A stretch of 64,000 nucleotides of DNA from the sequence record ON782582.1. One strand, written 5' to 3'. The notes under the pieces were generated by a model. The model was not told the origin of the DNA. It saw nothing but the letters and a program-made list of their open reading frames with translations, and searched no databases. Positions 13,156 through 13,208 of the stretch are shown here, piece after piece; the first letter of the stretch is position 1; the number at the start of each line of letters is the position of its first letter. Both the position numbers and the translations under genes were made by a program. The stretch is from Escherichia phage ECP52.

Positions 13156-13208
13156 GTTTACATACCACAAGGACCGTGGTACTATACAACTATCAACTAC
13201 TGATACAG
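13156..13208 (+). promoter_or_regulatory. Early promoter plus conserved leader cassette
   Basis: GTTTAC 13156-13161; GTGGTACTATACAACTATCAACTACTGATACAG (13176-13208) is identical to 16596-16628. Confidence 0.5.

Follow-up and report, generated by a model that had tools for sequence, protein, structure and literature searches.

The repeated promoter-leader block of Escherichia phage ECP52 as a probable member of the T4-type early-promoter cassettes

The promoter-leader block that recurs in the genome of Escherichia phage ECP52 is a real repeat of ordinary origin: its copies belong to the catalogued early promoters of phage T4, PmotA included, and the phenomenon is already known in kind. It is quite likely that the block is no independent element but represents the core and the first transcribed bases of one subfamily within the T4-type sigma-70 early promoters. 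As part of this explanation, and with the same likelihood, the copies are early-promoter cassettes of the PeSL (promoter-early stem-loop) type, whose similarity is maintained by selection on promoter function together with ectopic recombination. On this reading the block recurs because promoter cassettes share ancestry and recombine, and not because of a conserved RNA hairpin. The window, i.e. the whole stretch of 64,000 nucleotides analysed here (ON782582.1), belongs to Tequatrovirus. Its identity is 99.5% to Escherichia phage EO1, over a 6-kb stretch, and ∼96% to many T4-like phages, and it follows the T4 genome collinearly in reverse complement, first over 11,493 to 1 and next over 168,903 to 118,101.

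On the + strand of the window the 33-mer GTGGTACTATACAACTATCAACTACTGATACAG has two exact occurrences, at 13176-13208 and 16586-16618; 100 dinucleotide-preserving shuffles gave no match, not even at a tolerance of 3 mismatches. The longest exact repeat comprises 34 bp (Table 1). The 18-mer TATCAACTACTGATACAG from the 3' part of the block is found exactly at 5211-5228, 13191-13208 and 16601-16618 (0.06 expected). The first-pass annotation had reported the identity of 33 bp at two loci, which holds, while its coordinates for the second copy (16596-16628) were in error by 10 nt and the exact match is one of 34 bp; the further occurrence of the 3' part at 5211-5228 was correctly seen. Its placements after denB and before motA are likewise right, the 13176 copy lying between denB and ndd.6 and the 16586 copy between motA.1 and motA, and the copy at 5211 has motB and cef as neighbours. 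A second segment common to the two loci, TTCACAAAAC(A/G)GTTTACA, had been missed. It lies upstream of the block, and the denB/ndd.6 and PmotA versions agree at 18 of 19 positions. The -35/-10 spacer, 13-14 nt between both common segments, is unrelated in the 13176 and 16586 copies. Since the spacers are unrelated, the two focal copies do not go back to one recent duplication of a whole promoter.

Each full copy has the layout GTTTAC, an 18-nt spacer ending in TGG, TACTAT, a 6-nt discriminator ACAACT, and then ATCAAC... Within this layout the block covers the part from the extended -10 TGG through the -10 TACTAT and the discriminator to the +1 A, together with the first 17-18 transcribed bases, and spans -16 to +17 as the 33-mer or to +18 as the 34-mer. 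GTTTAC-18-TACTAT starts at 13156 and at 16566, with TGG before each -10, while at the motB/cef copy (5176) the -35 element is degenerate (ATATAC) and TGG-TACTAT is retained. A/T-rich, UP-like stretches, AAAAATTTCACAAAAC and AAAAATTTTTTTCACAAAAC, lie directly 5' of the -35 elements. The promoters are located on the early strand, 5' of a Shine-Dalgarno sequence and an early-gene start codon, and are orthologous to catalogued T4 early promoters (Pe). As an independent annotation, the GenBank record of the related phage Lutter has promoters at the two places and a terminator before motA. By inspection of the sequence, neither a MotA box nor a late-promoter motif was seen in the block.

The transcription start was set to the seventh base past the -10 hexamer. 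Since this rule reproduces the published T4 early starts at 27,044, 150,727, 41,225 and 35,662 (PMC6024815), +1 was placed at 13192, 16602 and 5212. RegB has a strong cleavage consensus, GGAGRAYARAA (PMC3014915), and the motA mRNA is cleaved by RegB in its Shine-Dalgarno sequence (PMC2988021). The element GGAGAATAAAA, a complete fit to this consensus at 13213, is also present at 5239. We infer promoter activity, start sites and RegB cleavage from the T4 literature and from the identity of the sequences with T4. E. coli RNA polymerase would bind the A/T-rich upstream region, the -35 GTTTAC, the extended -10 TGG and the -10 TACTAT, and transcription would begin at the A of ATCAAC at the three positions given above. 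The G-poor, essentially unstructured leader would run to a GGAG Shine-Dalgarno sequence fitting the RegB consensus, giving a burst of immediate-early expression that RegB would later switch off. A literature search did not find genome-wide transcription-start maps for T4, and a search for the literal block strings returned one unrelated plant paper only.

Table 1. Positions of the repeat copies and of adjoining or related features in the window; +1 denotes the predicted transcription start
Feature	Position	Strand	Description
Near-palindrome, 43 bp	5182..5224	+	Centred on the -10 TACTAT (5200-5205) of the motB/cef promoter; right arm is the leader block
Copy 3, leader part only	5211..5229	+	TATCAACTACTGATACAGA; +1 at 5212; motB/cef intergenic promoter
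Shine-Dalgarno sequence of the ORF at the motB/cef promoter	5239-5242	+	GGAG, followed by the 90-aa ORF at 5249-5518
denB/ndd.6 promoter, upstream common segment	13145..13163	+	UP-like TTCACAAAACA, then -35 GTTTAC at 13156-13161
Copy 1 of the 34-bp repeat	13176..13209	+	TGG 13177-13179, TACTAT 13180-13185, leader AUCAACUACUGAUACAGA
Copy 1, start region	13186-13191; 13192	+	Discriminator ACAACT; +1 A by the start rule
ndd.6-side Shine-Dalgarno sequence	13213..13223	+	GGAG in GGAGAATAAAA; full fit to the RegB consensus GGAGRAYARAA
Mini-ORF MKIAEIEL, 8 codons	13223..13249	+	Stop overlaps the ndd.6 start (ATGA at 13246)
ndd.4/5-region promoter	13435..13495	+	Short leader ATCAACTAC-GGAGGAAC; spacer complementary to leader and Shine-Dalgarno sequence
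Terminator hairpin and T-run after motA.1 (intrinsic, predicted)	16513..16534	+	Stem-loop part of the PeSL-type cassette
PmotA, upstream common segment	16555..16573	+	TTCACAAAACG, then -35 GTTTAC at 16566-16571
Copy 2 of the 34-bp repeat (PmotA)	16586..16619	+	Extended -10, TACTAT 16590-16595, discriminator, +1 A at 16602, leader
motA Shine-Dalgarno sequence and start codon	16625..16639 (start 16637)	+	GGAGATTAGAA; 10 of 11 RegB consensus positions
frd.3 upstream promoter	33254..33298	+	Shares TTTCACAAAAC-N-GTTTACA and ATGGTACTATACAACTATC, then diverges
Related promoter with short leader	34250..34310	+	ATCAACTACTGGGGAG; spacer type of T4 Pe146.1; other leader, other downstream gene

When the whole T4 genome was scanned for GTTTAC-N17/18-TAnnnT, the early strand yielded 41 sites. 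Between -3 and +8 the majority bases of these 41 early promoters read CCT-ATCAACTA, each position being present in 43-70% of them. All eight early-strand occurrences of the 9-mer ATCAACTAC in T4 begin at +1 of a GTTTAC-type promoter, and in the window all five + strand occurrences begin at a promoter +1. T4 early promoters are described as exceptionally strong, with 'additional regions of consensus' outside the classical elements (Hinton review, PMC2988021). As far as our own alignment indicates for the share of +1 to +8, GTGGTACTAT plus ATCAACTA(C) would constitute the extended consensus of the promoter class, and the likeness among loci from -17 to about +8 would reflect this consensus. The first-pass annotation had named complete coverage of the block by the published extended consensus as a point that would tell against its reading; by our alignment this applies in part, to most of the block from GTGGTACTAT through ATCAACTA and not to ACAACT and +9 to +18.

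The discriminator ACAACT and TGATACAG at +10 to +17 are the marks of a subfamily. Its T4 members beyond the block loci are e.8 (70,660), imm.1 (27,044) and nrdC.10 (55,348; with a 3-nt deletion), and the long leader stands in T4 before e.8, imm.1, nrdC.10, ndd.6, motA and the cef-upstream ORF, six places altogether. Selection for promoter strength and escape might by itself hold each position of the block, without any copying, and the exceptional strength of the T4 early promoters and their consensus beyond the classical elements (PMC2988021), here reaching to about +8, would suit such pure convergence, as would a related leader start (ATCAACTAAAC..., cf. ATCAACTA) in a genus with just 69% MotA identity. 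However, well-formed early promoters with unrelated discriminators and leaders coexist in the same genomes; these are equally good, and the specific block sequence is therefore not needed for early-promoter function. Moreover, pairwise identity goes on past the block via the Shine-Dalgarno spacer to the first codons (ndd.6/imm.1 and cef-upstream/e.8 in T4), spacers are common to promoters with different leaders, and chimeras and cassette replacements are directly observed. We consider convergence without copying very improbable. Under the preferred reading, common descent with recombination, ACAACT and +9 to +18 would be alike among loci because the cassettes share descent and swap segments by ectopic homologous recombination, with the conserved -35, -10 and start blocks as crossover sites.

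Degenerate copies had also been noted near 13471, 33290 and 34279, and these proved to be genuine related early promoters (Table 1). Copies of ATCAACTAC begin at 13471 and 34286, and a third promoter, whose +1 is 33290, has ...TACTATACAACTATC in common and then diverges. This last promoter, upstream of frd.3, has identical flanks in the window and in T4 but different spacers, the spacer of the window being of the T4 Pe.8 type and that of T4 of its PnrdC.10 type. Since all four combinations of spacer and leader exist, crossover has occurred inside the conserved -35 to +3 blocks.

The same kind of mosaicism appears across phages. In the INPHARED phage collection, from which the distribution counts were taken (IMG/VR held just 13 motA loci and 8 block loci), the 33-mer occurs at 1053 places in 506 phage records, with 1-4 per genome. 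The motA locus is dimorphic: the block-type cassette is present in ∼354 records, ∼166 have an early promoter and leader of unrelated sequence, and MotA is 100% identical behind the block-type and the alternative cassettes. The natural alternative motA leader reads ATCAAATAAATGAACTGAAAC. Phage Sf21 carries a chimera that follows the block to ATCAA and continues with the other leader and an extra gene. Between the 13176 and 16586 copies themselves, a direct sign of exchange is confined to the single A/G position +16. Here the denB/ndd.6 block, otherwise as in T4, has A in the window (ACAG), which is the motA base, and G in T4 (ACGG). The PmotA block is base-for-base the same in T4, and the motB/cef copy is also the same over the block.

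Gene insertions and deletions are found directly beside the cassettes, namely an 87-aa ORF at denB/ndd.6 and a 90-aa ORF upstream of cef. In most relatives the 87-aa ORF lies between the denB promoter and ndd.6 (RB51-type ORF272c), while the window and T4 retain its last 8 codons only. They form the mini-ORF MKIAEIEL, which has a perfect Shine-Dalgarno sequence and is unannotated, in T4 as well. By sequence comparison MKIAEIEL is the remnant 3' end of ORF272c, apparently left by deletion between AAATGAAA repeats, and it is probably translationally coupled to ndd.6. The 90-aa ORF (MENLIIIEQ...KRIAPLFN) stands 3' of the cef-upstream promoter in the window, whereas T4 has a ∼200 bp internal deletion and a frameshifted stub. 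Near-identical copies of the block are in this way tied to insertions, deletions and replacements among close relatives. According to the literature on PeSL cassettes, these mediate indels between T4 and PST, including ndd.4/.5 (PMC4122927), mapped crossover points fall in the interval from the -10 to the ATG, and T4 recombines efficiently at short homologies (PMC2839356). The 'recent copying of a regulatory cassette' proposed in the first-pass annotation stands insofar as segments were exchanged among loci, as evident from mosaics, chimeras, alternative cassettes and indels; a simple recent duplication is contradicted by the unrelated spacers.

The leader had also been read as a small hairpin, TATCA-ACTAC-TGATA. 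The pairing exists on paper, but since the first T sits at -1 the RNA stem (AUCA/UGAU) has just 4 bp, with a 5-nt loop and -0.6 kcal/mol. If the stem-loop AUCA-ACUAC-UGAU were selected, it could serve mRNA stability against decay from the 5' end, or control of processing or translation. It begins exactly at +1 and is the predicted minimum free energy fold of the isolated 17-mer, and the related frd.3 leader possesses a stronger 5'-terminal hairpin, likewise AUC...GAU, of -7.6 kcal/mol. The occupancy of the weak 4-bp stem is nevertheless only ∼55%, and the full leaders of the three copies fold no better than shuffles (z +0.64, -0.39 and +0.70). A variant without TAC, ATCAACTGATACGG, occurs in T4 at PnrdC.10, and RB51 and at least 56 records have it at the orthologous denB promoter; the deletion leaves a 2-nt loop and therefore no hairpin. 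In many promoters ATCAACTAC runs straight into GGAGG, so that the 3' arm is absent, and the motA leaders of ∼166 close relatives and of other genera are free of the hairpin. No Rfam covariance model gave a gathering-score match in the whole window, and an Rfam E-value scan of 13100-16700 yielded chance-level matches on the terminator only (E up to 1).

Stem-loops of the ompA type at the 5' terminus stabilise E. coli mRNAs. Like these, the hairpin of the window would begin at the first transcribed base, but its stem is far weaker, unconserved and without covariation, and so it displays neither the thermodynamic stability nor the conservation or covariation of a 5'-terminal stabilising stem-loop. 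Because of the weak fold, the variant lacking TAC, the stemless motA leaders and the lack of an Rfam match, the RNA-structure reading is unsupported, and with it the selection on the RNA via a small hairpin that was suggested earlier; we regard a selected stem-loop as very improbable. The frd.3 leader (AUCGGCAAUACUGCUGAU, 33290-33307) is predicted to form a 7-bp hairpin from +1, with a mismatched stem in T4, and by this folding appears a more promising candidate than the repeat block for a stabilising structure at the 5' terminus.

The core consensus of IHF is WATCAANNNNTTR. The dyad TATCA-N5-TGATA (+1 to +13), taken as DNA, resembles this core and could be an operator for IHF or for an early shut-off factor, since it is symmetric and, in six T4 promoters (motA, ndd.6, cef-upstream, e.8, imm.1 and nrdC.10), overlies the start site at one constant position. 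The mechanism of the T4 early-transcription shut-off is stated as unknown (PMC2988021). An IHF-like core was rejected for one critical mismatch, TATCAACTACTGA having G for the required second T (TGA vs TTR). Furthermore, the half-sites amount to merely 4-5 bp, the variant without TAC alters their spacing and yet is common, the dyad is dispensable for motA in about one third of the relatives, and no candidate binding protein was identified. An operator function is thus very improbable. Just as hard to credit is the idea that AUCAACUACUGAUAC(A/G)G, or its DNA dyad over the start, serves as a recognition tag for an immediate-early gene set under one factor. If it were true, motA, ndd.6, the cef-upstream ORF, e.8, imm.1 and nrdC.10 would be co-controlled, and the factor could belong to the early-transcription shut-off or to a control at the RNA level distinct from RegB. 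Positions +9 to +18 may have a role in promoter escape, in sigma-dependent pausing, as an RNase E site or in S1 binding.

[quoted passage not shown] Spacer/leader complementarity of at least 7 exact bp is present in 13 of the 41 T4 promoters, compared to 1.3 expected from cross-pairing of spacers with the leaders of other T4 promoters (permutation p < 2e-4). In the window, promoters with such an inverted repeat have their -35 at 3508, 13435, 43705, 47026 and 50045, and partly at 29953 and 33254. At several of them read-through RNA of the window has z of -3.5 to -5, and the unpaired probability of the Shine-Dalgarno sequence is ∼0 in this RNA versus ∼0.9 in promoter-started RNA; these predictions suggest that translation depends on which promoter made the transcript. 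In this they resemble the hairpins at T4 e, soc, 49 and I-TevI, where such a dependence is known (PMC3014915). The two focal promoters have no spacer/leader complementarity (best 4 bp), and at seven motA loci of other genera no enrichment was found in 11 promoters. The promoters before alc (43705-43758) and alt.-3 (59003-59056) share 94% identity across 54 bp, a stretch that takes in spacer, leader and Shine-Dalgarno sequence, and form a separate cassette subfamily with an inverted repeat that sequesters the Shine-Dalgarno sequence. The alt region also contains diverged direct repeats (54891-55424 vs 56985-57518, and 56329-56803 vs 58432-58894) with 72-80% identity at a distance of ∼2.09-2.10 kb, consistent with the known partial alt duplication in T4 (alt.-1, alt.-2).

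The motB/cef promoter lies in a near-palindrome with 20-nt arms that are 85% complementary and a 3-nt centre. As read-through RNA it has -20.8 kcal/mol (z -4.85), and T4 has the same structure. Its reverse strand reads TGATATAGT-ACCATA-ATCAACTAC, and judged from these letters the site is possibly a bidirectional extended -10 promoter.

Among known systems, the T4 early promoters share with the window the UP-like region, GTTTAC, the 18-nt spacer, TGn, TAnnnT and a start at A, and for the PmotA and denB/ndd.6 blocks also orientation and downstream genes. The T4 counterparts have their predicted +1 at 163,637 (before motA), 167,050 (after denB), 6,594, 70,660, 27,044 and 55,348. Differences concern the +16 base of the ndd.6 copy and the cef-upstream 90-aa ORF, kept in the window and lost in T4, and nothing essential. 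Like the RegB-sensitive initiation regions of T4, all three leaders of the window end in a Shine-Dalgarno sequence of the GGAG(A)ATAAAA type; the putative RegB site is situated 4-21 nt 3' of the repeated block and outside it.

PeSL cassettes, in the portions of the accounts considered here (Arbiol et al. 2010, PMC2839356; Comeau et al. 2014, PMC4122927), consist of a terminator stem-loop, an A/T-rich region, -35, -10, Shine-Dalgarno sequence and ATG. The copies of the window resemble them as repeated compact cassettes in hyperplastic early regions, with indels and replacements between close relatives. An upstream stem-loop is present at the motA copy (Table 1) and absent at 13140-13156, from the denB stop to the promoter of the 13176 copy, which in this respect lacks the element that defines a full PeSL, and the cef copy has the palindrome around its -10 instead. 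Exchange of the -35/-10 spacer alone, as seen in the window, is a further difference from PeSLs, since the same portions of these accounts do not describe it. Deletions or mini-circles are the expected products of recombination between PeSL copies; here the Sf21 chimera and the ORF272c remnant are visible as footprints of past events. The repetition agrees with what has been published on strong promoters of extended consensus and on shuffling of the PeSL type. In annotating Tequatrovirus genomes, the block can be relied on to mark immediate-early transcription units and should not be entered as a structured RNA element. The window offers a clean small-scale example of cassette evolution, in which the polymerase-contact blocks would act as crossover points, while spacers, leaders and downstream genes reassort between loci and phages and leave footprints such as the 8-codon remnant ORF.
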